Source: Escherichia phage ECD7. From it: a DNA stretch of 64,000 nt. Both the position numbers and the translations under genes were made by a program. A model generated the notes under the pieces. The model was not told the origin of the DNA. It searched no databases and saw only the letters and a program-made list of their open reading frames with translations. Of the stretch, positions 21,233 through 62,515 are shown in pieces. The stretch's first letter is position 1. Each line of letters starts with the position of its first letter. The DNA lies in sequence record NC_041936.1. One strand, 5' to 3'.

Positions 21233-21262
21233 TTGACTAATATGTTCTCGTTAGTGTATGAT
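21233..21262 (+). promoter_or_regulatory. sigma70-like promoter (TTGACT, 18-nt spacer, TATGAT) upstream of homing endonuclease gene
   Basis: -35 21233..21238, -10 21257..21262; overlaps a 9-bp inverted repeat 21242..21250 / 21267..21275. Confidence 0.45.
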
Positions 21263-52374: not shown

Positions 52375-52452
52375 TTTAAACCTCCCATATAACAGAAAAC
52401 GGGGCTAGTATAAAACTAGTCCCCGTTTGAGTCAACCATTATTTCTTAAAAA

Positions 52453-54504
52453 TTACATTTTAAATTTATCTGGCATTGCGTCTACAGATACCAGATCAGC
52501 GATAAGCTGACGTAGAGTTGCCTTATCTGCTTTCTTACGTTCGGTTTTAGCTTCGCTAATGAAGCTGGAGAAAGACAGGTCAGAAGCAGGTTTAACAACA
52601 CCCTCACGGATGAATGCATCACCGTCCGCGATCATCTCACCAGATTCTTGTAATGCTGCCAGTTCACTTTTGTTCATAATATGTGCCTCAATGTAATAAG
52701 TTTCTTGTGAATCCGTCGATGCCGTAGCACGAGTTACCGTATCAAAGGATAACACAACACCGCGAGGAAGTAAAATCTCGCATTCTTTGTAAGCAAATGC
52801 TTTGTTACCTACTGGCAATACAGGGATGTTTTCCGCGCCAGCGATAGAGAAAGCAACATTAGCGCCACCTTCACCGCGAGAGCCAGCCATAGAATCAACA
52901 CCAGCAACGGCACTAGCCACGTTTGCATTCCAGCCACCAAAAATATTAGGCGCAAGGGAAGTGCTCACATAGTTTTTAAAGTAAAACGCTTTTTGCTTAC
53001 GTGCAGTTTCCCACATTTGCGACCGGAAGTCCATACCACGATACAGAATAGTACCCGGATCAAGTTTAACACCATAGTTAGAGAAGGCATTATCCAGTGC
53101 ATCGCACATCTTGACCAATTCTTCTGGATCTGCGATTCCCTCAAACTCTTCCAGCTTGCGATCAGTTAGGAAGTTGTTCATATTGATGTATGCTGCATCG
53201 GCATATTCGCTCAACACAAAACCTTCCGCGCCCGGCAGATCAAGATCAATATCTGCCATCATTTCACCCATGTTGCTAGCAATTGCTTCAAACATACCGG
53301 ACGCAACATTACGAAGGGCATCGGTTTTAATCTGGGTGATATGACTACGCAGCATTTCAGCTTTTACATCTGCTGGCATAGACTGGTCTACTCGATCCAT
53401 TGCCAGGGCGGTGATCTTGTTTTCGAATACTTCCTCGCTCATGATTTCTTTTAAGCGTTTGATTGAGGCTGCGATAACTTCCGCAGACAACGGATCATAT
53501 TGATCCTGAACTTTTACCAGTTCGCTTACTGCGTATTTTGCATCGGCTTCGCTTTCAAAAATAGTACGCATGAAACCATAGCGAGTGATAATATCACTTG
53601 TCCAGTCATTCAGAGAACGGGCGGTTGAACGTTCTAAGGCTTGACGGTCAATCAGAGTATTAAACTGTTTCTTAGGTTCGGCTTCGGTGATATCTTCTTC
53701 CGGTTTAAGATTAATTTTTTCTGGATGATTCACGTAGTCGCTGTTATAGGTCGCTTGAGTTTTCAGCATTTCTTCTTTAGTCAAACGAGATTTAGCCGCT
53801 ACGCGTTGTTCTGCTTCCGCGTTTCGTTCTTCTTCTGACACAAGACTAGCCGCATACGCCTCATCTTTAGTCAGAGATTCACCAGTAGCCTTAGATACCC
53901 AGCGATCACCTAAATCACTTTCTACTTTAGTGAACAAGGATTCATCAAGTTTAATCCCTTTAATCTTATCAATCGCCATCCCGCGACGTTTGACAACAAC
54001 TAAAGCGATCTTTTTGCTGGTCATTACTTCCTGCTGGAATACTTCAAACTTCGGTGTACGACGCACCAAACGCTCTATAACGCGCTTAACCAGTTCGGTC
54101 TTACCTTTCATGCGGGATACGTTAAAACGGAACATAACAGCGTCTAATTGCGCTTTACGGGCTGTTTCCATAACCACATCAAAAGCACTTGCCATAACTG
54201 CAATCGGGTTATCACCTAGACCATTTTTAAGCTGTACAATACGACCGCTTTTGTTCATTTCACACAGTACAACGTGTGCGGTCTTGTCACCCATACGAAT
54301 AATTTTAGGTGTTTTGTTGGTGAAGTTGCAAAGACGGACAATCACATCTTTATCGCGTGTCTGTACTGCAAAAAGCTGTTTAGGATTCTGCTTAGGCTTT
54401 AAGCATTGTACCGGAGCAATACTGCCAAAGTTTTCTTCCTCTTCCGTCAACAGCCATTTCTCGAAAGATTCAATCATTAGATCGTCGATTTCTAAGTTAA
54501 ACAT
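52453..54504 (-). CDS. alt: Alt ADP-ribosyltransferase (head-packaged)
   Basis: 683 aa (T4 Alt ~682); C-terminal ILYRGMDF...YVSTSLAP...ECEILLPRG. Confidence 0.85.
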   Translation of the reverse strand: MFNLEIDDLMIESFEKWLLTEEEENFGSIAPVQCLKPKQNPKQLFAVQTRDKDVIVRLCNFTNKTPKIIRMGDKTAHVVLCEMNKSGRIVQLKNGLGDNPIAVMASAFDVVMETARKAQLDAVMFRFNVSRMKGKTELVKRVIERLVRRTPKFEVFQQEVMTSKKIALVVVKRRGMAIDKIKGIKLDESLFTKVESDLGDRWVSKATGESLTKDEAYAASLVSEEERNAEAEQRVAAKSRLTKEEMLKTQATYNSDYVNHPEKINLKPEEDITEAEPKKQFNTLIDRQALERSTARSLNDWTSDIITRYGFMRTIFESEADAKYAVSELVKVQDQYDPLSAEVIAASIKRLKEIMSEEVFENKITALAMDRVDQSMPADVKAEMLRSHITQIKTDALRNVASGMFEAIASNMGEMMADIDLDLPGAEGFVLSEYADAAYINMNNFLTDRKLEEFEGIADPEELVKMCDALDNAFSNYGVKLDPGTILYRGMDFRSQMWETARKQKAFYFKNYVSTSLAPNIFGGWNANVASAVAGVDSMAGSRGEGGANVAFSIAGAENIPVLPVGNKAFAYKECEILLPRGVVLSFDTVTRATASTDSQETYYIEAHIMNKSELAALQESGEMIADGDAFIREGVVKPASDLSFSSFISEAKTERKKADKATLRQLIADLVSVDAMPDKFKM

Positions 54505-54537
54505 TTTATATCCTCTAGTTGATAACCTATAAACCTA

Positions 54538-54545
54538 TATTTATG
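54538..54545 (-). promoter_or_regulatory. late-promoter-like CATAAATA upstream of alt
   Basis: 7/8 match to TATAAATA on minus strand, 34 nt upstream of alt ATG. Confidence 0.3.
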
Positions 54546-54570
54546 AAAAAGGGGCTTAACGCCCCCTTTT
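54546..54570 (-). terminator. hairpin terminator (aaaaaggggc-ttaac-gcccccttttt)
   Basis: GC stem flanked by A5 and T5; follows gene 54572..54784. Confidence 0.55.
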
Positions 54571-54571
54571 A

Positions 54572-54784
54572 TTATAATGCACCATCAAGCAATTGCTCTA
54601 AGGTGTATCCTGAATAGTCTTTTTCAATCAGGATATATTTTCCTACTCGTTTAATCCAACCGCGCATTTCAACGTATTCTGCGTAGTTGATGGTGCGAGT
54701 TGTTCCATCTTCCAGTAATGCAGTACCGATTTCGTTGATGCGGTCATAAGTTACGTCGGTAATGATGATTTCGATGTTAGCCAT
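54572..54784 (-). CDS. hypothetical small protein (70 aa from ATG 54784)
   Basis: Begins MANIE like the product of 56662..56913; track ORF has 17-codon extension from a GTG. Confidence 0.5.
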   Translation of the reverse strand: MANIEIIITDVTYDRINEIGTALLEDGTTRTINYAEYVEMRGWIKRVGKYILIEKDYSGYTLEQLLDGAL

Positions 54785-54820
54785 TTGATACTCATTAGTA
54801 GTTCGTTTCGGTATGTGTGC

Positions 54821-54849
54821 ATTATAGGGGATCACCGATCCCTTGTCAA
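54821..54849 (-). promoter_or_regulatory. promoter-leader cassette copy a (TTGACA, 17-nt spacer ggggatcggtgatcccc-like, TATAAT)
   Basis: Minus-strand -35 at 54844..54849, -10 at 54821..54826. Confidence 0.6.
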
Positions 54850-54857
54850 CAACTTTT

Positions 54858-55376
54858 TTAGTTATTTTTTAATTGCTCATCTTGCAATAGGGCAATCACA
54901 TGCTGGCGATGTTCTTCCGATTGAGGCACACCGAAAAAGTTTGTTTTGTAGAAATACTCTAATCGGTCTTCTCGTGTGCTCTCTTCCATCATGATCGCGG
55001 GTAGTCCGAGATTTCGGAAACGTCGCTTTTCTGCTGGCGTAAAATCACTGTAATACAGCATATAATCATCATTACCAGCAATGCTAAACTCATCCTTCAT
55101 GAAAGAGAATATTGCGTTTAAACGCTGTTTACCGTCCACGATTTCGATTTCATAGCGAGAGCCATCATCAATCTTAGCCATTGCGATAGCACCAACCGGA
55201 AAATCATTAATCAGGTTTTCGATAAACATACGTTTGTTTTCTGTGTCCCATACCAAAGGACGCTGATAATCTGGGTTCATGTTGATATAGCCATCTTCTA
55301 ACCATGCTTCGTAAACAGAGATGACAAAGTTTTTAGTATTGGTATAGTAACGGCGTTTAGGCGTTAAACGGTTCAT
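54858..55376 (-). CDS. DUF262/ParB-like nuclease-superfamily protein (172 aa from ATG 55376)
   Basis: Motifs DYQRPLVW and IVDGKQRLNAI; start has GGAG SD and abuts upstream stop. Confidence 0.55.
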   Translation of the reverse strand: MNRLTPKRRYYTNTKNFVISVYEAWLEDGYINMNPDYQRPLVWDTENKRMFIENLINDFPVGAIAMAKIDDGSRYEIEIVDGKQRLNAIFSFMKDEFSIAGNDDYMLYYSDFTPAEKRRFRNLGLPAIMMEESTREDRLEYFYKTNFFGVPQSEEHRQHVIALLQDEQLKNN

Positions 55377-55377
55377 A

Positions 55378-55707
55378 TTATAGTCTCCTGAATGGATCAT
55401 CACGTAAATCAATATCTTTTAAGAACTCATCCCATGAATGGCGGATATTGTTCTTAATTCTCCAGATAAGCGCAGGGATTGAACGCTCTCCCATCTGGAA
55501 GTAAGGATCATATGATCCGTATGCCCAATATGCTACTACAATTCCACAATCAGCGCAATAGTATTCTATTTCACTTGCTGGCGACCAAAGTCCATCAATA
55601 TGATCAGTGATCTTGCTTTCGATGTTATGGCTATGACAATCAGGGCAACGGATGCAATGACCTTGTTTATCGTAATTTGACGTTAGAGAATACTTAAACA
55701 ATCTCAT
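55378..55707 (-). CDS. small zinc-ribbon protein (109 aa)
   Basis: CIRCPDCH ... CADCG Cys pairs. Confidence 0.55.
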   Translation of the reverse strand: MRLFKYSLTSNYDKQGHCIRCPDCHSHNIESKITDHIDGLWSPASEIEYYCADCGIVVAYWAYGSYDPYFQMGERSIPALIWRIKNNIRHSWDEFLKDIDLRDDPFRRL

Positions 55708-56423
55708 TATAGATCCTTATTGGCTTCAAATACTGCCTTTGCGAATCCTCGCGGCGTAAGTGACCTGATAGTCTTTGTTCTGGTTCCTTTCCCGCCTAGC
55801 TTAGAATGCTGTTTGCTGTACCCTTTATTAATCTGCAACGGTTTCTTTTCTGGCATTATAAAGCCTTGTCCGGTCCATAAGCAAGTCTTTTTCGGGTACA
55901 TATCACGGGCGGCAATATACTCAGGAAACGTAGGATGCTTATCATCTTCCGGCAAATAACCGCCATATTCCCACGGATGGAACATGTAATCAGGCTTACG
56001 CCACATACTAGAGATAACGCTTACAGGATTCTCTATCATATAGGGAACTCCTAGCCATTCACCCAAATAAGCGGTTATTTTAGCTGCCCGTACATCATGA
56101 ACTTGAATCAATGGTCCTTGTTCTCGTTTCTTTCGTTCAAAGTGTGCAGCGCCACTAACAGCTAAATTGGTGCACGGTGGGAATGCAAATATAATATCCG
56201 GTTTCCCCCATTCAAGGTCCATTGCTCTTTCCAGCCAGTTCAAATCAATCCAGGTGTTTACATAGGTAATGTTTGGATGTTCAAATCTGGTATTATACTT
56301 TTTGTATGTACCGTGGTCGGCGTCATCCGCATTAAAGCAGACTACCTTATGACCTGCTTTAGCCCATTCTAGCCCCATTATCCCCGATCCGTCAAAGTTG
56401 CAGAATATTAATTTTTGTTTCAT
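55707..56423 (-). CDS. C5-cytosine methyltransferase-like protein (238 aa)
   Basis: FDGSGIMG (motif I-like), FAFPPCTNLAVSG (PC motif IV-like), MIENPVS (ENV motif VI-like); shorter than typical C5-MTases. Confidence 0.5.
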   Translation of the reverse strand: MKQKLIFCNFDGSGIMGLEWAKAGHKVVCFNADDADHGTYKKYNTRFEHPNITYVNTWIDLNWLERAMDLEWGKPDIIFAFPPCTNLAVSGAAHFERKKREQGPLIQVHDVRAAKITAYLGEWLGVPYMIENPVSVISSMWRKPDYMFHPWEYGGYLPEDDKHPTFPEYIAARDMYPKKTCLWTGQGFIMPEKKPLQINKGYSKQHSKLGGKGTRTKTIRSLTPRGFAKAVFEANKDL

Positions 56424-56665
56424 ATACGACCCTTTAACCCAGCACAGATTTTAGTCGGTTCTTTACCGTGCCACATTAAGTAAAGTCCGTTAGTGCGGCC
56501 TTGTTTTGTATATGATTCTTTTCTGATCTTCTTATAGTATCGTGCTTCCTCAGCCGATTGTTTAGAATGCCGATCATAAAGGAAGAGGAACAAAGGCCAA
56601 CCATTAGCGGCCTTAATGCAGTTATTAAGAAATTCCTTATTGCGTTTAATTAATTTTCTTTTCAC
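56420..56665 (-). CDS. hypothetical basic protein (81 aa)
   Basis: ORF coupled to flanking genes by 4-nt overlaps. Confidence 0.5.
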   Translation of the reverse strand: MKRKLIKRNKEFLNNCIKAANGWPLFLFLYDRHSKQSAEEARYYKKIRKESYTKQGRTNGLYLMWHGKEPTKICAGLKGRI

Positions 56666-56913
56666 GCTGCCCCCATTGGTTTGATAGTAACAGAATCTAA
56701 AAGACCTTTGTTAGCCAGTTCGCGGCAAGTTTTCAGATCCGTAACTTCCCAGCCAGCCGCAATCAGGTTATCAATGAGGCTGTTAGCAACTTCCTCGCTC
56801 ATGAAAGAGCACTGTTTGCCGATGGTGTAGCGCACACGCTGTAATTTCAGTTTACGGAAGCCTTTAACGTTCAGGTCTTTAGCGATTTTCTTTGCGGTTT
56901 CGATGTTAGCCAT
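56662..56913 (-). CDS. hypothetical protein (83 aa)
   Basis: ORF with GGAGAATC SD, downstream of promoter copy b. Confidence 0.55.
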   Translation of the reverse strand: MANIETAKKIAKDLNVKGFRKLKLQRVRYTIGKQCSFMSEEVANSLIDNLIAAGWEVTDLKTCRELANKGLLDSVTIKPMGAA

Positions 56914-56953
56914 TGTTTGATTCTCCTAAGTGGTATCTCGTCTTGATGGTTGT

Positions 56954-56982
56954 ATTGTAGGGGAGTTATCCTCCCCTGTCAA
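56954..56982 (-). promoter_or_regulatory. promoter-leader cassette copy b (TTGACA, palindromic spacer ggggaggataactcccc, TACAAT)
   Basis: -35 at 56977..56982, -10 at 56954..56959. Confidence 0.6.
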
Positions 56983-56996
56983 CACTTTTTATAAAA

Positions 56997-57164
56997 TTAT
57001 TTGTTAATTTCTGGTGCGTTGCTCGGATAGTAACCTTCTTTAACGCCCAGGTATTTCGCAACCATCCCTACAATCTTCTGTGCTACTACAATGTCAAATT
57101 TCAGATAATCTTCGCCGTGGGTTTCAATGATATATGCTTCACATGCTGCTTTAGTCTCGAACAT
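56997..57164 (-). CDS. hypothetical small protein (55 aa), paralogue of 60255..60422
   Basis: MFETKAACEAYIIETHGEDYLKFDIVVAQKIVGMVAKYLGVKEGYYPSNAPEINK; below ORF-track size cutoff. Confidence 0.6.
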   Translation of the reverse strand: MFETKAACEAYIIETHGEDYLKFDIVVAQKIVGMVAKYLGVKEGYYPSNAPEINK

Positions 57165-57197
57165 TTTGATTCTCCTATTTCGTTTCGGTATGGGTGT

Positions 57198-57226
57198 ATT
57201 ATAGGGGATCTCCCGATCCCCGTCAA
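57198..57226 (-). promoter_or_regulatory. promoter-leader cassette copy c (TTGACG, spacer ggggatcgggagatccc, TATAAT)
   Basis: -35 at 57221..57226, -10 at 57198..57203. Confidence 0.6.
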
Positions 57227-57240
57227 CAACTTTTTTAAAA

Positions 57241-57522
57241 TTATTCGTGATTAGTTTCGATGTTGTGCATTTTGCACCAGTTCAGCCAATCGCCCAGATC
57301 TTGATAGTTGATGCTTTTATCTGCTGCCATCGTTTTTGTCTTGATACCCATATGTGCGTTATGAGTAAGCATTTTTACAGTGAACTCAATTTTATCGCCT
57401 TTAGCTTTAACATCAACCAGTTTGGTCCACTGGCTACCAGCGCCGCGAATGTTCATGCCAACGATGTTTCCGATGTATGCTTCTTTGTTTTTCAGGATTT
57501 CGGTTGCTTTGATGAATTTCAT
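57241..57522 (-). CDS. hypothetical protein (93 aa)
   Basis: ORF downstream of cassette copy d. Confidence 0.55.
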   Translation of the reverse strand: MKFIKATEILKNKEAYIGNIVGMNIRGAGSQWTKLVDVKAKGDKIEFTVKMLTHNAHMGIKTKTMAADKSINYQDLGDWLNWCKMHNIETNHE

Positions 57523-57565
57523 TTTTGATTCTCCAGTTCGTTTCGGTATGGGTGTATTATGCTAT

Positions 57566-57594
57566 GTTCTTACTTTGGTGTCAACAACTTTTTA
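57566..57594 (-). promoter_or_regulatory. promoter-leader cassette copy d (TTGACA, 17 nt, CATAAT; non-palindromic spacer)
   Basis: -35 at 57589..57594, -10 at 57566..57571. Confidence 0.55.
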
Positions 57595-57861
57595 GATATT
57601 TTCAGAAATAAATTTTAAAACTTGACGTAAATGTTTCTCATCTTTGATAGTCGCCGGAAGTTCTTCTTTTACTTCCTGTGCAAGATAGATATTTCCGTTC
57701 CAAGTGAAAGATCCGTCTTCGTTTACGCGATAGCTGAACATCCACTCGCAATCATTTTCGATTTCATATACACACAGAAGGGTGTAATCGTTAAAGCTAT
57801 TGATTTCAAGGTCGAAGCCGTGACGTTTTGCAAAGTTGGTAGTGGTTTTAGTCAGTGCCAT
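57592..57861 (-). CDS. hypothetical protein (89 aa)
   Basis: ORF downstream of cassette copy e. Confidence 0.55.
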   Translation of the reverse strand: MALTKTTTNFAKRHGFDLEINSFNDYTLLCVYEIENDCEWMFSYRVNEDGSFTWNGNIYLAQEVKEELPATIKDEKHLRQVLKFISENI

Positions 57862-57901
57862 TGTTTGATTCTCCTAAGTGGTATCTAGTTTCGATGGGTG
57901 T

Positions 57902-57930
57902 ATTATGCTATACACAGGATCTGGTGTCAA
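57902..57930 (-). promoter_or_regulatory. promoter-leader cassette copy e (TTGACA, 17 nt, CATAAT)
   Basis: -35 at 57925..57930, -10 at 57902..57907. Confidence 0.55.
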
Positions 57931-57954
57931 TGCCTTTTTTAAAATTTTATGCAA

Positions 57955-57980
57955 TAAAAAAGCCGACGCTATGGTCGGCT
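57955..57980 (-). terminator. rho-independent terminator (agccgac-gctatg-gtcggct, T6 on minus strand)
   Basis: Follows gene 57988..58296. Confidence 0.6.
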
Positions 57981-57987
57981 AATAAAA

Positions 57988-58296
57988 TCATTTAGACAAA
58001 TAATCATTCTGTGCAATCCGGTCGGCGTATGCTGGTGTTATGTCAATCGCCAGCACTTTAACGCGTGCTTTCTTGCGACCTGGGTTTTCTCGTAACCAGT
58101 GCTCATGACCGTGAATATTTTTATACTGCGATGCTTCTTCGAAGGTACGGATCGGACCTGGGTAATCAGCGTAAAGGATCTCTAGATCTTCGGTGATGTA
58201 AAAATATACATCGTAATTGCTGTTCTCTAGCTTAAGCAGAGACTTTCGGAACATTGGGAGATTTTCGCGGGTAAATTCAAAGATATTATCTTTCAT
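57988..58296 (-). CDS. HxHW-family small protein, member 1 (102 aa)
   Basis: HGHEHWLRENPGRKKARVKVLAIDI. Confidence 0.6.
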   Translation of the reverse strand: MKDNIFEFTRENLPMFRKSLLKLENSNYDVYFYITEDLEILYADYPGPIRTFEEASQYKNIHGHEHWLRENPGRKKARVKVLAIDITPAYADRIAQNDYLSK

Positions 58297-58320
58297 AGTA
58301 TTATCCTCAATAGTTGGATG

Positions 58321-58340
58321 AAAAGGGGCGTTAACGCCCC
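58321..58340 (-). terminator. rho-independent terminator (ggggcg-ttaa-cgcccc, TTTT on minus strand)
   Basis: Follows gene 58347..58634. Confidence 0.6.
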
Positions 58341-58346
58341 CATATA

Positions 58347-58634
58347 TTAAAACAGTCCTTCCTGTACACCGTAGTAGAGTTCGTCGCTGATAATTTCATT
58401 AATGCGACGGTGTGCATATTCCTGATTTGCGAAGTTGTCAGCAAGTTCTACTTTAGTTTCGCCGTCATGAGTCCATTTAGTGATAACTTTACCATCTGCA
58501 AATTTGAAGTTGAACTCTTTAGCTACTGCATCGCGTACCAGACGTGCAAACTTATTGTTGCGGATTGCATTGTCGGTTTCGTGTGCAGCGTGAGCAAATT
58601 TGTTAACTTTCAGAGTGATAGTGATGTATGCCAT
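58347..58634 (-). CDS. hypothetical protein (95 aa), AKEFN-family with 61640..61951
   Basis: RLVRDAVAKEFNFKF vs LIREVRKALAKEFNTKI. Confidence 0.55.
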   Translation of the reverse strand: MAYITITLKVNKFAHAAHETDNAIRNNKFARLVRDAVAKEFNFKFADGKVITKWTHDGETKVELADNFANQEYAHRRINEIISDELYYGVQEGLF

Positions 58635-58680
58635 AATTTGATTCTCCTAGTTAGAAAGTGTATCTCGTTTCGATGGGGAT

Positions 58681-58709
58681 ATTATGCTATACCCCCGATC
58701 TGGTGTCAA
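58681..58709 (-). promoter_or_regulatory. promoter-leader cassette copy f (TTGACA, 17 nt, CATAAT)
   Basis: -35 at 58704..58709, -10 at 58681..58686. Confidence 0.55.
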
Positions 58710-58715
58710 CACTTT

Positions 58716-59009
58716 TTATAAAATAATTTTTTGATATTTTTCTATGATGTTCGTGTAAGTCACATCAACCGCTAGCACCGTTGCTTCGAATCCACCGTTT
58801 AGCCAATGGCTATGATCATGGTCGTGAAAGAAACCTAGTCCAGTACGAAGACCTTCTTTATATTCTGCGCGTACATTCAGTTTGTCGTCGATAAACAGAT
58901 AAAACCATGAATTTTTACTAGGATTGATGATACAACCTTTCAGATTAGGGAGAATATCACGACTAAGAATAAATTTATCACCTACTTTGAACATAATATT
59001 AGTCCTCAC
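58716..59009 (-). CDS. HxHW-family small protein, member 2 (97 aa)
   Basis: HDHDHSHWLNGGFEATVLAVDV. Confidence 0.6.
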   Translation of the reverse strand: MRTNIMFKVGDKFILSRDILPNLKGCIINPSKNSWFYLFIDDKLNVRAEYKEGLRTGLGFFHDHDHSHWLNGGFEATVLAVDVTYTNIIEKYQKIIL

Positions 59010-59319
59010 TTATAAGGTCAAACCAATTGTTTTTCGCATAATGCTTAATGCGTGCTTGATCTGCTTCCGCTGGTGATAGATTCCATGCAACCACTACAAC
59101 TTCTGACGCATCGTCATCAGTTTCTGATACCCAATGATTGTGATTCATACAGTTATTTGCTATCGAGTGAGCAAATGATTTCATCACTGGAGACGTATAA
59201 TCATAGTAACGGATTTTCAGATTTTCATCAACATACAAATAGATCGTATAAGGTTTATATTCAGTAACCAGTAACAGACAGTTACGCAATTCTGGGAAAA
59301 TCTTTTTAGTTAATTTCAT
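58999..59319 (-). CDS. HxHW-family small protein, member 3 (106 aa)
   Basis: MNHNHWVSETDDDASEVVVVAWNL. Confidence 0.6.
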   Translation of the reverse strand: MKLTKKIFPELRNCLLLVTEYKPYTIYLYVDENLKIRYYDYTSPVMKSFAHSIANNCMNHNHWVSETDDDASEVVVVAWNLSPAEADQARIKHYAKNNWFDLISED

Positions 59320-59521
59320 ATTCTAGTTCTCCGTAATACACAGTAATCCATTTTTCTTCATACTTTGTATCTTTCCAGCACACAACCCCGTTTACTGTGC
59401 AATCTTTGGAATTGACGAATGATTCATATTGTTCTGCATCTTCCATCATTTCATGAGCGGTCTTTTCATCGAATATATCGCAGATCGCTTTATATGCTCG
59501 ATAATCTTTAAATTTGCTCAT
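59306..59521 (-). CDS. hypothetical small protein (71 aa from MSKFKDYRAY), tandem paralogue 1
   Basis: N-terminus and MMEDA motif shared with 59524..59733. Confidence 0.55.
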   Translation of the reverse strand: MSKFKDYRAYKAICDIFDEKTAHEMMEDAEQYESFVNSKDCTVNGVVCWKDTKYEEKWITVYYGELEYEIN

Positions 59522-59523
59522 AA

Positions 59524-59733
59524 TTAACACCACTCAAGAGTTTTTGAAAACACATCTATCCATTGTTGAGTATATGCGGTTTCTTTCCATGATACAATAC
59601 CAGTCGAATAATGGTTTTTGTTTCCAGAAAAGGACGGGCATTTTGATGCATCTTCCATCATCTTTTCGGCGAACTCTGGTGCGTATACTCGCAAGATCTG
59701 TTGATATGCTTTGTAGTCTTTAAATTTGCTCAT
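59524..59733 (-). CDS. hypothetical small protein (69 aa), tandem paralogue 2
   Basis: MSKFKDYKAY...EKMMEDASK. Confidence 0.55.
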   Translation of the reverse strand: MSKFKDYKAYQQILRVYAPEFAEKMMEDASKCPSFSGNKNHYSTGIVSWKETAYTQQWIDVFSKTLEWC

Positions 59734-59998
59734 AATCGTTAACTACCTTATCAGCTTCTTTTATTGTTTTTACATCAACTGCGATAATACGTAAAGGTTC
59801 GTCGAAGGTCCACCAATGATCGTGAATATCAGCTTGTGATTTATCACCAAAGGAATCACGAATATCATTTTTACATTTATAGCTAATGTGACCGTTATAG
59901 TCAACATAAAGGTAATTATCGAAAATCGGCGTTTTTAAGATCATACCGAAAAATCTTTCTTTGTGTGTCTTATCCAGCGTTGCAGTAATTCGCATCAT
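59720..59998 (-). CDS. HxHW-family small protein, member 4 (92 aa)
   Basis: ADIHDHWWTFDEPLRIIAVDV. Confidence 0.6.
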   Translation of the reverse strand: MMRITATLDKTHKERFFGMILKTPIFDNYLYVDYNGHISYKCKNDIRDSFGDKSQADIHDHWWTFDEPLRIIAVDVKTIKEADKVVNDYEQI

Positions 59999-60010
59999 AA
60001 TATATTCCTC

Positions 60011-60190
60011 TTAGAAAGGGATGGTCATTTCTTGAGCTTGTACATTCTCGTTAGGATTAAACTTCATCCAACCGATATTGTCTACCAGCATATACACATT
60101 TTTATCATATCCTACGTGAGTAGTCAACACTAAATGTGCTTTACCTTCAACGATGATTTCCATGTACTTCTGAACTTCGATAGCTTTCAT
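60011..60190 (-). CDS. hypothetical small protein (59 aa)
   Basis: ORF with GGAGAATC SD; below ORF-track size cutoff. Confidence 0.5.
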   Translation of the reverse strand: MKAIEVQKYMEIIVEGKAHLVLTTHVGYDKNVYMLVDNIGWMKFNPNENVQAQEMTIPF

Positions 60191-60222
60191 TTTGATTCTC
60201 CGTTTGTTGTCTTGATGGGAGT

Positions 60223-60251
60223 ATCTTACTACTCCCTTTAATCATTGTCAA
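60223..60251 (-). promoter_or_regulatory. promoter-leader cassette copy g (TTGACA, spacer with palindrome gggagta-n6-tactccc, TAAGAT)
   Basis: -35 at 60246..60251, -10 at 60223..60228. Confidence 0.5.
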
Positions 60252-60254
60252 CGA

Positions 60255-60422
60255 TTATTTGTTAATTTCCGGTGCGTTGCTTGGATAGTAACCTTCTTTA
60301 ACACCCAGATATTTTGCAACCATTCCGGTGATCTTCTGTGCCACTACGATATCGAATTTCAGGTAGTCTTCACCGTGGGTTGCTACAATGTATGCTTCGC
60401 ATTCTGCTTTAGTCTGGAACAT
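60255..60422 (-). CDS. hypothetical small protein (55 aa), paralogue of 56997..57164
   Basis: MFQTKAECEAYIVATHGEDYLKFDIVVAQKITGMVAKYLGVKEGYYPSNAPEINK. Confidence 0.6.
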   Translation of the reverse strand: MFQTKAECEAYIVATHGEDYLKFDIVVAQKITGMVAKYLGVKEGYYPSNAPEINK

Positions 60423-60455
60423 TTTGATTCTCCTTTATCTCGTTGGTATGTGTGC

Positions 60456-60484
60456 ATTATAGGGGATCACCGATCCCCTGTCAA
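60456..60484 (-). promoter_or_regulatory. promoter-leader cassette copy h (consensus TTGACA, 17-nt perfect palindrome ggggatcggtgatcccc, TATAAT)
   Basis: -35 at 60479..60484, -10 at 60456..60461; two GATC sites in spacer. Confidence 0.65.
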
Positions 60485-60489
60485 CAACT

Positions 60490-60783
60490 TTATAATGCTT
60501 TATATGCGTATTTCATAAATTTGTCTGCCACTTCATTGGCATGTTCAGATTCTACGCCTGATTCGAGAACAATAGCTAGGTCGGTTTCGTCATTCCCGCC
60601 GTACCAATGATTTGATGTTCGATTTTTTTCAATTGGAAATTGGTCACTTTTATCTGTGCGACAAAATACATCTAAATGCTCGTCGATGTAAAAGATCCAA
60701 TCTTCATAAAGAATAACGGTATTAGCCAGATTTTTATTGCCTTCAACGAAAGGTTCGGCTACAAACAAATTAGTATGTTCCAT
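60490..60783 (-). CDS. HxHW-family small protein, member 5 (start likely ATG 60783)
   Basis: TSNHWYGGNDETDLAIVLESG; track ORF extends to 60840, overlapping upstream ORF. Confidence 0.5.
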   Translation of the reverse strand: MEHTNLFVAEPFVEGNKNLANTVILYEDWIFYIDEHLDVFCRTDKSDQFPIEKNRTSNHWYGGNDETDLAIVLESGVESEHANEVADKFMKYAYKAL

Positions 60784-60799
60784 AGTAATTTCCTCAAAA

Positions 60800-60991
60800 T
60801 TATACAGCTTCGTAAACTTCCCAATGTCCAACACCAGCACGCTTAACGAAAAGGTTTTCTTTGATGTTATTCATAAACGTCTGGATGGATTTAATGCGGT
60901 TTGAAGGTTTCCATTCTTCGTTGGCATTGCGTCGATACATCATAACATTACCAGTTCGCTTATATTCAGCAACCATTTTAAGACCACACAT
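60800..60991 (-). CDS. hypothetical small protein (63 aa), ends with GHW motif
   Basis: GAGGA SD before ATG 60991; C-terminal GVGHWEVYEAV may be a truncated family member. Confidence 0.4.
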   Translation of the reverse strand: MCGLKMVAEYKRTGNVMMYRRNANEEWKPSNRIKSIQTFMNNIKENLFVKRAGVGHWEVYEAV

Positions 60992-61048
60992 AATATTATC
61001 CTCAATTTGCGGGAGAGTATTACCCCTCCCAATGATTGTTATGTTATA

Positions 61049-61369
61049 TCACACAAAATGGCGTGTCAATGCTTCTTTTGCGGTTCCGCTAAGACTTTCG
61101 ATCTCGCCTGGCATAACATCAACCGCCAGAACTTCTACAACATCCTCGGACCCTAACCAGTGAGTATGGCCTTTGTAGAACTTGATAACCAGACTACCTT
61201 CCTCGTCCCATTTAACGCTATCGCTAGCCCACCACACATCACCGTCGATAAAGTTGATGTAAAGCACACTACGCAACATTGAATTAATTACTTTCAATAC
61301 TGCGCCTTTCATCTCTTCCACGGTATGGTCTTCCATTTTGAAGACCATACCTACCTGAACTTTTGCCAT
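61049..61369 (-). CDS. HxHW-family small protein, member 6 (106 aa)
   Basis: KGHTHWLGSEDVVEVLAVDV. Confidence 0.6.
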   Translation of the reverse strand: MAKVQVGMVFKMEDHTVEEMKGAVLKVINSMLRSVLYINFIDGDVWWASDSVKWDEEGSLVIKFYKGHTHWLGSEDVVEVLAVDVMPGEIESLSGTAKEALTRHFV

Positions 61370-61386
61370 TTAGTCACCTCTCTTTA

Positions 61387-61566
61387 TTACATAACAATCA
61401 CGCCAGCCGTTGAAAGTTGATGTTTCAACTGAGCATTTTCTGCTACCGTCAAATCAATGATTTCTTGTGACGCTGCAATCATATATCCATTGGTGATATT
61501 GTTTTGCATCAGTTCAATGGTTTCTTCGTTGTAGCGGATTTTAGCGATGATTTCGTTGAAGTTCAT
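61387..61566 (-). CDS. hypothetical small protein (59 aa)
   Basis: ORF directly downstream of cassette copy i; below ORF-track size cutoff. Confidence 0.5.
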   Translation of the reverse strand: MNFNEIIAKIRYNEETIELMQNNITNGYMIAASQEIIDLTVAENAQLKHQLSTAGVIVM

Positions 61567-61600
61567 GATTGATTCTCCTAGTTCGTTTCGGTATGTGTGT

Positions 61601-61630
61601 AGTATAGGGGATCTCCCGATCCCCTGTCAA
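61601..61630 (-). promoter_or_regulatory. promoter-leader cassette copy i (TTGACA, 18-nt palindromic spacer ggggatcgggagatcccc, TATACT)
   Basis: -35 at 61625..61630, -10 at 61601..61606. Confidence 0.6.
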
Positions 61631-61639
61631 CAACTTTTT

Positions 61640-61951
61640 TTAAAGTTTTTCCATGATAACGGTCATAATTACATCTTCTGCGCGAGCGGTCAGATTATCA
61701 GCGTCAGCATGTGGGCGGTTGGTTGTTACAGAGATAACACCGTTGCGCACTGGTTTGATATTGATATCAAGATGATCCGCGAAACGTTCGCCAGTTACAG
61801 AATGAATTTTGGTGTTAAATTCTTTTGCCAGTGCCTTGCGAACTTCACGAATCAGGGTAGCGTTTTTCAGTTGGTTCTCCGCGCTCATGGTCTTCTGGGT
61901 GTTCATGGTTCCGTCGAAGTCAATCATTGGCAGCGTTACGATGTATTTCAT
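61640..61951 (-). CDS. hypothetical protein (103 aa), AKEFN-family with 58347..58634
   Basis: Shared AKEFN motif. Confidence 0.55.
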   Translation of the reverse strand: MKYIVTLPMIDFDGTMNTQKTMSAENQLKNATLIREVRKALAKEFNTKIHSVTGERFADHLDINIKPVRNGVISVTTNRPHADADNLTARAEDVIMTVIMEKL

Positions 61952-61996
61952 TTTTGATTCTCCGTTTAAGAAAGTGTGTTTCGTTTTGATGTGTGT

Positions 61997-62025
61997 AGTA
62001 TAGGGGATACGTGATCCCCTGTCAA
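61997..62025 (-). promoter_or_regulatory. promoter-leader cassette copy j (TTGACA, spacer ggggatcacgtatcccc, TATACT)
   Basis: -35 at 62020..62025, -10 at 61997..62002. Confidence 0.6.
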
Positions 62026-62038
62026 CAACTTTTTTGAA

Positions 62039-62515
62039 TTATTTTTCTTGATGCTCGCGCTCGTACTTTTCGAAATAAAATTCTACTGGCTGGTCATGAA
62101 TTGACAGCAAGCCAAAGCGTTTAGCCGCTCGCAATCCCATATTGCGCTGAATGTACTTCTGGAAGTTCTCGCGTATACACTTACGCCAGTATTCTAAGCC
62201 CATACAGCTTTTATAAAGATTGCATTGTACACACGCCGGATTCATGTTATCAAGTATATCATGTTCCGGTTTATGCATTCCTACAACCTTATACTTCCAC
62301 GACCCATCATCATTACGGGCAATTCGTCCATTTTCATCATAGACTACCTTTGAGCGTCGCAATACTGGTTTGATATGGTCTGCGTGCCAGCGATCCCCTA
62401 GTTCCTCGCCACAATAGGCACAACGCCCACCGTATTTCATTTTCAGGATCTGGCGTTGCTCTTTCTTTGACAATTTTTTAGGTTTAGGGGCTTTCGCCCC
62501 TTCATTATCACACAT
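62039..62515 (-). CDS. HNH endonuclease
   Basis: CAYCGEEL...WHADHIKP...NMNPACVQCN; 158 aa; start overlaps ligase stop by 8 nt. Confidence 0.7.
   Translation of the reverse strand: MCDNEGAKAPKPKKLSKKEQRQILKMKYGGRCAYCGEELGDRWHADHIKPVLRRSKVVYDENGRIARNDDGSWKYKVVGMHKPEHDILDNMNPACVQCNLYKSCMGLEYWRKCIRENFQKYIQRNMGLRAAKRFGLLSIHDQPVEFYFEKYEREHQEK

Follow-up and report, generated by a model that had tools for sequence, protein, structure and literature searches.

Between the alt gene (52453-54504) and the DNA ligase gene 30 (from 62508) of Escherichia phage ECD7 (NC_041936.1), ten small genes on the minus strand are each preceded by a copy of the same promoter-leader sequence, which raises the question of what these repeats are and what their hairpins and recurrent GATC sites do. 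The repeat was analyzed in a stretch of 64,000 nucleotides, referred to here as the window, of which positions 54500-62400 were read for it; it occurs there in 10 copies of 65-95 bp each. The copies are very probably the promoter-early stem-loops (PeSLs) of RB49-type (Krischvirus) phages, a class of element that is already known, and the finding is in this sense a rediscovery. This identification is based on the shared genus and region, the same anatomy and the identity of copy 1 to PeSL211/210 of phage RB49. About 60 genomes of Krischvirus (RB49-like, Straboviridae) share 94-98% identity with the window, phage JEP8 being the best match (97.7%), and according to the annotated records the cassette region is syntenic with ORF185-ORF212 of phages phi1 and RB49. 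Cassette 1 agrees with RB49 PeSL211/210 at 91 of 91 positions, and between cassette 3 and RB49 PeSL206/205 there is one nucleotide difference in the compared stretch. In the record of phage GEC-3S the sites already carry a promoter annotation with -35 and -10 signals.

PeSLs were defined by Arbiol et al. (2010; Genome Biol Evol 2:140; PMC2839356) from a comparison of phi1 and RB49. In their layout an AT-rich tract containing the upstream stop codon is combined with a sigma-70 promoter, a stable stem-loop, a Shine-Dalgarno sequence (SD) and a start codon, and the stem-loop often contains a polyG followed by a polyC stretch (GGGG...CCCC). Five subclasses were distinguished by the position of the stem-loop, the commonest being those between -35 and -10 or overlapping -10. 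A lacZ reporter driven by PeSL206/205 reached about 13,000 Miller units, the stem-loop of PeSL211/210 cut read-through about as much as rrnB T1 (reporter host DH5alpha, dam+ only), and PeSL-bounded mini-circles were detected for ORF192 and ORF210 by inverse PCR. All of these elements belong to the same alt-ligase region; cassette 1 was equated with the tested terminator by its element name and its sequence identity to RB49. Comeau, Arbiol and Krisch (2014; PMC4122927) extended PeSLs to the phage pairs T4/PST and KVP40/nt-1 and restated the RB49 type as a GN-loop-CN stem with TTGACA-N17-TATAAT, and according to Nolan et al. (2006; PMC1524935) the RB49 early-promoter consensus agrees with mapped 5' ends. 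Literature searches returned no relevant Krischvirus transcriptome and no work on GATC or Dam at RB49 promoters. A preliminary description of this DNA had remarked on a resemblance to PeSL cassettes of T4-type phages. It named the right type, but the relation is more than resemblance, as these are the RB49/phi1 alt-ligase PeSLs themselves. Its opinion that a hairpin inside the promoter spacer is unusual is contradicted by PMC2839356, where spacer placement or -10 overlap is commonest. Anatomy, non-random occurrence, hairpin stability, covariation and mapped junctions are established for these cassettes, and the published reporter assays were made on identical or near-identical sequences.

An A-tract, a -35 hexamer, a spacer, a -10 box and a conserved leader are common to all 10 copies, whose -35 hexamers start on the minus strand at 62025, 61630, 60484, 60251, 58709, 57930, 57584, 57226, 56982 and 54849. 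Upstream of -35, the A-tract has the form AAAAAAGTTG and holds the stop codon of the upstream gene in nine copies. The distance between the upstream stop codon and the cassette start is 3-14 nt in nine copies and 57 nt for copy 57930, where a canonical intrinsic terminator found by the terminator scan (57980-57961, directly upstream of this cassette) sits in between. The -35 hexamer is TTGACA in all copies except 57226 (TTGACG), the spacer measures 17 nt, with a single copy of 18 nt, and the -10 box reads TATAAT, TATACT, CATAAT, TACAAT or TAAGAT. The leader is conserved across the cassettes as CAYACCGAAACGA / CATCRAAACGA, and the ATG of the small ORF lies 61-75 nt downstream in each of them. 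Nine copies carry the SD GGAGAATC with the ATG 3-5 nt further on, whereas copy 54849 has AATGAGTATC in its place, a weaker SD (GAG). Measured against the sigma-70 consensus TTGACA-N17/18-TATAAT, nine copies agree at 11 or 12 of the 12 positions and the tenth at 10. In Markov simulations of the region, such 11-12/12 sites numbered 0.43 on average and three at most, and all nine best-matching promoters are on the coding strand. The repeat is thus far beyond chance expectation, with a mean pairwise identity among cassettes of 69% (highest 89%). The preliminary description had proposed ten promoter-leader cassettes upstream of ten small minus-strand genes, and all ten were located; the conserved leader it reported was confirmed as well, but its SD before the ATG applies to nine of the ten.

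Stem-loops are present in nine of the 10 cassettes, six within the spacer and three across the -10 box (60251, 58709, 57930). The RNA folding energies of these nine hairpins range from -5.6 to -14.9 kcal/mol; the folding z-scores are -2.3 to -4.2 in seven copies and weaker in 57930 (-1.6) and 54849 (-1.1). A spacer palindrome of the GGGGATC type is found in five copies, all on the minus strand like the other cassettes. Cassette 1 (61952..62038; -35 at 62025-62020, -10 TATACT at 62002-61997), the PeSL211/210 ortholog upstream of an ORF210-like gene (61640-61951), folds within its spacer into AGGGGAT-cacgt-ATCCCCT (62020-62002; -10.1 kcal/mol, z -2.6); its arms are GGGGAT/ATCCCC and a single GATC is located at 62013 (GGGGATcacgtATCCCC). 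The other four copies (61630, 60484, 57226, 54849) carry two GATC sites each. In cassette 2 (PeSL210/209; 61567..61639; -35 at 61630-61625, -10 at 61606-61601), GGGGATC-GGGA-GATCCCC occupies the 18-nt spacer at 61624-61607 (-14.9 kcal/mol, z -4.2; GATC at 61610 and 61618). Cassette 3 (PeSL206/205; 60423..60489) matches the consensus at 12 of 12 positions (-35 at 60484-60479, TATAAT at 60461-60456), contains GGGGATC-GGT-GATCCCC at 60478-60462 (z -3.1; GATC at 60465 and 60472) and precedes a 55-aa ORF. A paralogous 55-aa ORF follows cassette 8 (PeSL193/191, in RB49 PeSL192/191; 57165..57240; TTGACG at 57226-57221, -10 TATAAT), which has (G)GGGATC-GGGA-GATCCCC at 57221-57204 (-13.9 kcal/mol; GATC at 57207 and 57215). 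Cassette 10, upstream of an ORF185-like gene (54785..54857; -35 at 54849-54844, TATAAT at 54826-54821), has (A)GGGATC-GGT-GATCCCC at 54842-54828 (-8.1 kcal/mol, z -1.1; GATC at 54830 and 54837).

The sixth spacer hairpin, AGGGGAG-gataa-CTCCCCT (56977-56959; -13.6 kcal/mol, z -3.5), belongs to cassette 9 (PeSL191/190; 56914..56996; -35 at 56982-56977, -10 TACAAT) and is free of GATC. Among the hairpins that overlap the -10 box, that of cassette 4 (PeSL205/204; 60191..60254; -35 at 60251-60246, TAAGAT at 60228-60223) is GGGAGTA-gtaaga-TACTCCC at 60236-60217 (-11.9 kcal/mol, z -3.2), again without GATC. Copies 58709 and 57930 share CCAGATC, with one GATC at the same spacer position. The former, cassette 5 (PeSL199/198; 58635..58715; -35 at 58709-58704, -10 CATAAT, GATC at 58697), forms GGGGGTAT-agcata-ATATCCCC over its -10 box at 58696-58675 (-13.5 kcal/mol, z -3.3), which GAT/ATC pairing lengthens to 58700-58672; in this class the GAT pairs with the ATC of the leader CCCATCG. 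The latter, cassette 6 (PeSL197/194; 57862..57950; -35 at 57930-57925, -10 CATAAT, GATC at 57918), has a weak hairpin, GTGTAT-agcata-ATACAC (57915-57898; -5.6 kcal/mol, z -1.6). Folding of cassette 7 (PeSL194/193; 57523..57591; -35 at 57584-57579, -10 CATAAT, no GATC) gave no hairpin (0 kcal/mol), and the same was found in 15 of the 15 genomes that have this promoter. The preliminary description had counted six GGGGATC palindromes with two GATC sites each; the type is real, but there are five copies, four of them with two sites. Of the two further spacer palindromes it listed, ggggag/ctcccc of 56982 lies in the spacer, whereas gggagta/tactccc of 60251 overlaps the -10 box.

Whether structure or sequence is conserved in these stems was assessed from orthologous promoters in 16 genomes, taken from GenBank Krischvirus records; a scan of IMG/VR for promoters of the ATAGCATAAT class with a free spacer yielded four contigs, too few for an unbiased census, and the GenBank records were used for this reason. 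MAFFT alignments of the spacer-hairpin class misplaced the loop gap or whole rows, so this class is described from its raw variants and not from pair counts; the -10-overlapping hairpins were aligned as two separate sets, as their registers are offset by one nucleotide. The ORF209 promoter (15 genomes) has three different spacers, all of them self-complementary: GGGGATCACCGATCCCC in six genomes, GGGGAGGTTAAACTCCCC in six and GGGGATCGGGAGATCCCC in three. Upstream of ORF190, phage PHB13 carries the spacer GGGGAGACACCCTCCCC. At the ORF198 promoter the -10-overlapping hairpin GGGGATAT/ATATCCCC is replaced by GGGTGTAT/ATACACCC, which amounts to two compensatory pairs with G·U intermediates, and in the second -10-overlapping class GGGAGTA/TACTCCC and GGGGGTA/TACCCCC occur among the genomes. 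The compensatory exchanges observed are between UA and GC, GC and AU, and AU and GC, with G·U intermediates. Single mismatches in the stems, read on the transcribed-sense strand, are G·U seven times and A·C once. This asymmetry speaks for a hairpin formed in read-through RNA more than for a symmetric element in the DNA. About 45 promoters of the TTGAC type with this layout were counted in the phi1 genome, in agreement with the approximately 50 PeSLs reported, and they represent at least seven different stem families. The earlier proposal of selection on structure over sequence is thus supported by the differing self-complementary spacers at orthologous promoters, the compensatory changes and the G·U wobbles; its suggested scoring of covariation in the cassette arms did reveal three covarying pairs, though the signal is modest and comes from related sequences. 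At the ORF194 promoter (57902-57924) the hexamer separating GATC from TATAG is hypervariable: 12 genomes that are otherwise about 95% identical show at least seven versions of it, while the flanking GATC and TATAGCATAAT are fixed.

The gene content of the region differs across the 16 genomes. Alignment of the window to eight relatives, counting non-redundant indel and replacement events, located the junctions of about seven events inside cassettes or at most 29 nt from them, typically with alignment ends overlapping by 56-97 bp. Since the cassettes make up only about 11% of the region length, the association is strong. A junction in cassette 54849 corresponds to the ORF186 module, which is absent from the window; GEC-3S, Phi1, RB49, JEP8 and JSE have a 191-bp extra segment at this cassette 10 with a 56-57 bp end overlap, and loss of the module has left the cassette as a chimeric junction. 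ORF192 of RB49 and a different insert of JSE have their junction at cassette 57226, and ORF195-196 of RB49 and MIZ4 at cassette 57930; for ORF211 it is the upstream edge of cassette 62025. In MIZ4 a deletion of 2.3 kb lies between cassettes 54849 and 57226, in phiS one of 1.5 kb between cassettes 60484 and 62025, and a deletion in phage Cognac begins in cassette 57226 and takes out the DNA between the two paralogous ORFs of 55 aa. About four junctions lie off the cassettes, namely ORF189.1 (JSE, phiS), one end of a replacement in JSE near 59515 and an insert of JSE at 61367. Search of the related genomes thus placed most junctions inside cassettes, as the preliminary description had anticipated for module boundaries. 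Spacer, -10 and leader variants are reassorted at a fine scale among genomes, which implies crossovers inside the cassette as well. At one promoter the loop of the palindrome (60462-60478) is found as GGT and as its reverse complement ACC with otherwise identical flanks, and all four combinations of loop and -10 box occur among genomes (Sf20, locus L024; GEC-3S, L001; KMB43, L023); the two loop orientations could result from hairpin inversion or from conversion between cassettes.

From these data the following working of the cassette can be proposed. Unmodified host RNA polymerase would start at the near-consensus sigma-70 early promoter with its A-tract straight after infection, and the short standard leader with its GGAG SD would drive one small accessory ORF or a short operon. 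As the inverted repeat lies upstream of the start, the cassette's own transcript would lack the complete hairpin, and only polymerases reading through from the upstream gene would copy it. In this read-through RNA the G/C-rich hairpin may attenuate or terminate transcription and so insulate each module. Since sigma-70 recognition depends little on the sequence of the spacer, a hairpin placed there or across the -10 box would take up no additional room between genes. With 60-90% identity over 65-95 bp, the cassettes would also serve as homology patches at which phage recombination deletes, inserts, duplicates and swaps the flanked ORFs, and GATC would simply be part of one successful stem (GGGGATC/GATCCCC) spread by duplication and conversion. 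Termination by each single copy, action at the RNA level and neutrality of GATC are points that we infer. The hairpin could act by termination, pausing or 3'-end protection, for which there is one published reporter construct. The idea that the hairpins terminate read-through transcripts, put forward earlier, is plausible in view of this PeSL211/210 assay. The GGAG SD is a known target motif of RegB, which is encoded by phi1, and a link between the cassette SDs and RegB may be considered by inference.

Several observations weigh against this model. The terminator scan lists none of the cassette hairpins, as TATAAT-like boxes instead of a U-run follow the stems, so that these hairpins are not canonical intrinsic terminators. 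Covariation is modest, with three covarying pairs among related sequences, and can only be supportive, and shared ancestry may inflate the shuffle controls. The hairpin is dispensable at some sites: 57584 has none, two copies are weak, and the ORF194 promoter (cassette 6) has lost it in most relatives while retaining the GATC. Two cassette classes of different structure retain GATC at one common spacer position amid varying flanks, and neutrality explains this shared position only in part, through GAT/ATC pairing. An antisense terminator, made up of the hairpin and the T-run complementary to the A-tract, was considered and rejected, as the T-run begins about 13 nt past the stem.

Two alternatives concern the palindrome itself. 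It may be a DNA-level site for a binding or structure-specific protein, or a cruciform cut by endonuclease VII, that initiates cassette exchange; a role of the stem-loop as a DNA-level recombination site was speculated on in PMC2839356, where one RB49 mini-circle crossover was mapped inside the loop. The occurrence of the loop in both orientations (GGT, ACC) at one promoter agrees with this, as does the presence of an HNH endonuclease gene (62039-62515) and a gene with a GmrSD_N domain in the region, and no mapped junction among the eight relatives falls in the palindrome-free cassette 57584. However, the junction overlaps span 56-97 bp of the cassette and thus reach beyond the stem-loop, as in ordinary homologous recombination, cassette 57584 is kept without a palindrome in every genome that has its promoter, and the preference for G·U (seven) over A·C (one) on the sense strand fits an RNA hairpin. 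Arms of 6-8 bp are, moreover, short for cruciform extrusion. This explanation is therefore considered unlikely. That the hairpins are functionless by-products, with palindromes hitch-hiking on duplicated strong promoters, would account for the copy without a hairpin, for the orthologous promoters that lost theirs and for the spread of the family by duplication. It is scarcely compatible with at least seven different stem sequences at equivalent positions in phi1, compensatory changes with G·U intermediates, folding z-scores down to -4.2 and the published terminator assay (PMC2839356), and is regarded as highly improbable.

The third alternative assigns a function to GATC. The cassettes contain 11 GATC sites, all in the spacer, distributed over seven of the 10 copies, and these could tie promoter strength, hairpin formation or protein binding to adenine methylation by host and phage. 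In this way infecting DNA, which is fully methylated, could be told apart from DNA that has just been replicated. Methylation of the sites is plausible, since phi1 encodes a D12-class Dam (PF02086, E 8e-31) and RB49 cytosines are unmodified (PMC4041780). GATC occupies spacer positions 4-7 in both the GGGGATC and the CCAGATC class, and it is invariant in 27 orthologous ORF194/ORF198 promoters in which the three bases before and the six after it vary. The pairing of sites, which the preliminary description had called unusual, is a mathematical consequence of the palindrome, because GATC is its own reverse complement and one site in a perfect inverted-repeat arm forces another. GATC is also common throughout: the 64-kb window holds 384 sites (observed/expected 1.65 by mononucleotide composition and 1.09 by a Markov-2 model), and the region is not enriched. 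The GATC-bearing copies are paralogues of one stem sequence, most phi1 stem families lack it (about two of seven have it after collapsing paralogues, judged not significant), and the information content at the GATC positions is just moderately above that of neighboring positions. Sister cassettes exist without GATC, and orthologous promoters can exchange it: the GATC-free hairpin GGGGAGGTTAAACTCCCC (GGGGAG...CTCCCC) occupies the same promoter in six of 15 genomes, and loss of GATC from one arm is tolerated (GGGGGTC, GTATCCCC), where GGGGGTC, present in phi1 and RB49, keeps a G·U pair. None of the sites falls within a -35 or -10 hexamer, and neither PeSL paper mentions GATC (PMC2839356, PMC4122927). 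Dam-coupled control is consequently very unlikely, weakly motivated and unsupported. Selection on GATC itself at spacer positions 4-7 (about -26 to -23) in a subset of Krischvirus cassettes, linked to Dam methylation, is a slightly less remote but still improbable reading. If it were true, early-promoter or terminator behavior might differ between methylated infecting and newly replicated DNA, and MutH nicks at cassette GATC sites might seed the conversion tracts that shuffle cassettes. The raw GATC count (seven of 10 cassettes; in phi1, about 15 of about 45 promoters where about five are expected) looks high but was rejected as evidence, as the copies are paralogous and the palindrome doubles the count.

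Related elements were also found outside the ten cassettes. A PeSL-type element upstream of alt (52391..52455, minus strand; TTGACT at 52435; -19 kcal/mol) has the hairpin AAACGGGG.CTAG/CTAGCCCCGTTT, which overlaps TATACT; the element is conserved in relatives. On the plus strand, a PeSL-type element at 21233 lies upstream of a virion-module gene (-19.9 kcal/mol, followed by AGGAGAATCATATG), and a degenerate candidate at 61069 (minus), inside the 3' end of an ORF208-like gene, has a GGGAG/CTCCC hairpin downstream of its -10. Three canonical terminators occur elsewhere in the region, by scan or annotation. With regard to tetranucleotides, GGCC is strongly scarce in the window (23 observed, where a Markov-2 model predicts 72 and base composition 109); AGCT and GTAC are low as well (ratios of 0.62 and 0.74), and GATC is not avoided. 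The pattern resembles the avoidance of restriction sites by a phage whose cytosines are unmodified.

Among the genes of the region, six paralogous ORFs of about 100 aa on the minus strand (57988-58296, 58716-58994, 58999-59319, 59720-59998, 60490-60783 and 61049-61369) have an invariant His-Trp motif and a strand resembling V-L-A-V-D-V in common, at 15-32% identity. A Pfam scan of two of them gave no match, and the six represent a family expanded inside the hyperplastic region. The 55-aa ORF is present twice (MFETK.../MFQTK...; 56997-57164 and 60255-60422, minus), each time with its own GGGGATC-type cassette, and phage Cognac lacks roughly 3 kb between the two copies. A block of three genes without internal cassettes (54858-56423, minus), absent as a whole from MIZ4, encodes a protein with a stand-alone GmrSD_N/DUF262 domain (E 6e-20), a small ORF of zinc-ribbon-like character and an ORF of 238 aa that is annotated as Dcm/C5-methyltransferase in relatives and has a weak Pfam match (E 0.014).

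The PeSL is a compact design: about 30 bp serve at once as promoter and as transcriptional insulator, and in addition as a portable linker for recombination, which drives the evolution by modules of the accessory genes of T4-type phages. This principle was established in 2010-2014; the window adds a set of alleles and a 16-genome comparison that agrees with the model. The recurrent GATC gives a hint of a possible further role; the GATC content of the stems was not commented on in PMC2839356. With the PeSLs of RB49 and phi1 the cassettes share the genus, the alt-ligase hyperplastic region, the AT-tract with a stop codon, TTGACA-N17-TATAAT, the placement of the GGGG...CCCC stem-loop, the SD and ATG of a small ORFan and the cassette-bounded indels. 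They differ in allele content only: the modules of ORF186, ORF192, ORF195/196 and ORF211 are missing from the window, and its spacer and -10 variants are combined in a way of its own. The PeSLs of T4/PST and KVP40/nt-1 (PMC4122927) likewise combine an early promoter with a stem-loop in hyperplastic regions at indel or replacement junctions, but their promoters are TTTACW or TTGYVH and their stems AGNA/TCNT or A3-4G3/C3T3-4, whereas the window cassettes have GN-loop-CN stems and near-perfect sigma-70 boxes. With intrinsic terminators the cassettes share a G/C-rich RNA hairpin directly after a stop codon and the reduced read-through of the published assay; their stems, however, are followed by a -10 box (UAUAAU) and not by a U-tract. 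Morons of lambdoid phages and integron gene cassettes are similar in that single accessory genes move with their own expression signals, but here the regulatory cassette itself is the exchange homology and no integrase or attC-type site is involved. In the known Dam-sensitive promoters, such as IS10 pIN and dnaA P2, GATC coincides in part with a regulator site or with one of the -35 and -10 hexamers. The window cassettes resemble these in having GATC within a sigma-70 promoter, but here it is located in the spacer and is absent from many sister cassettes.

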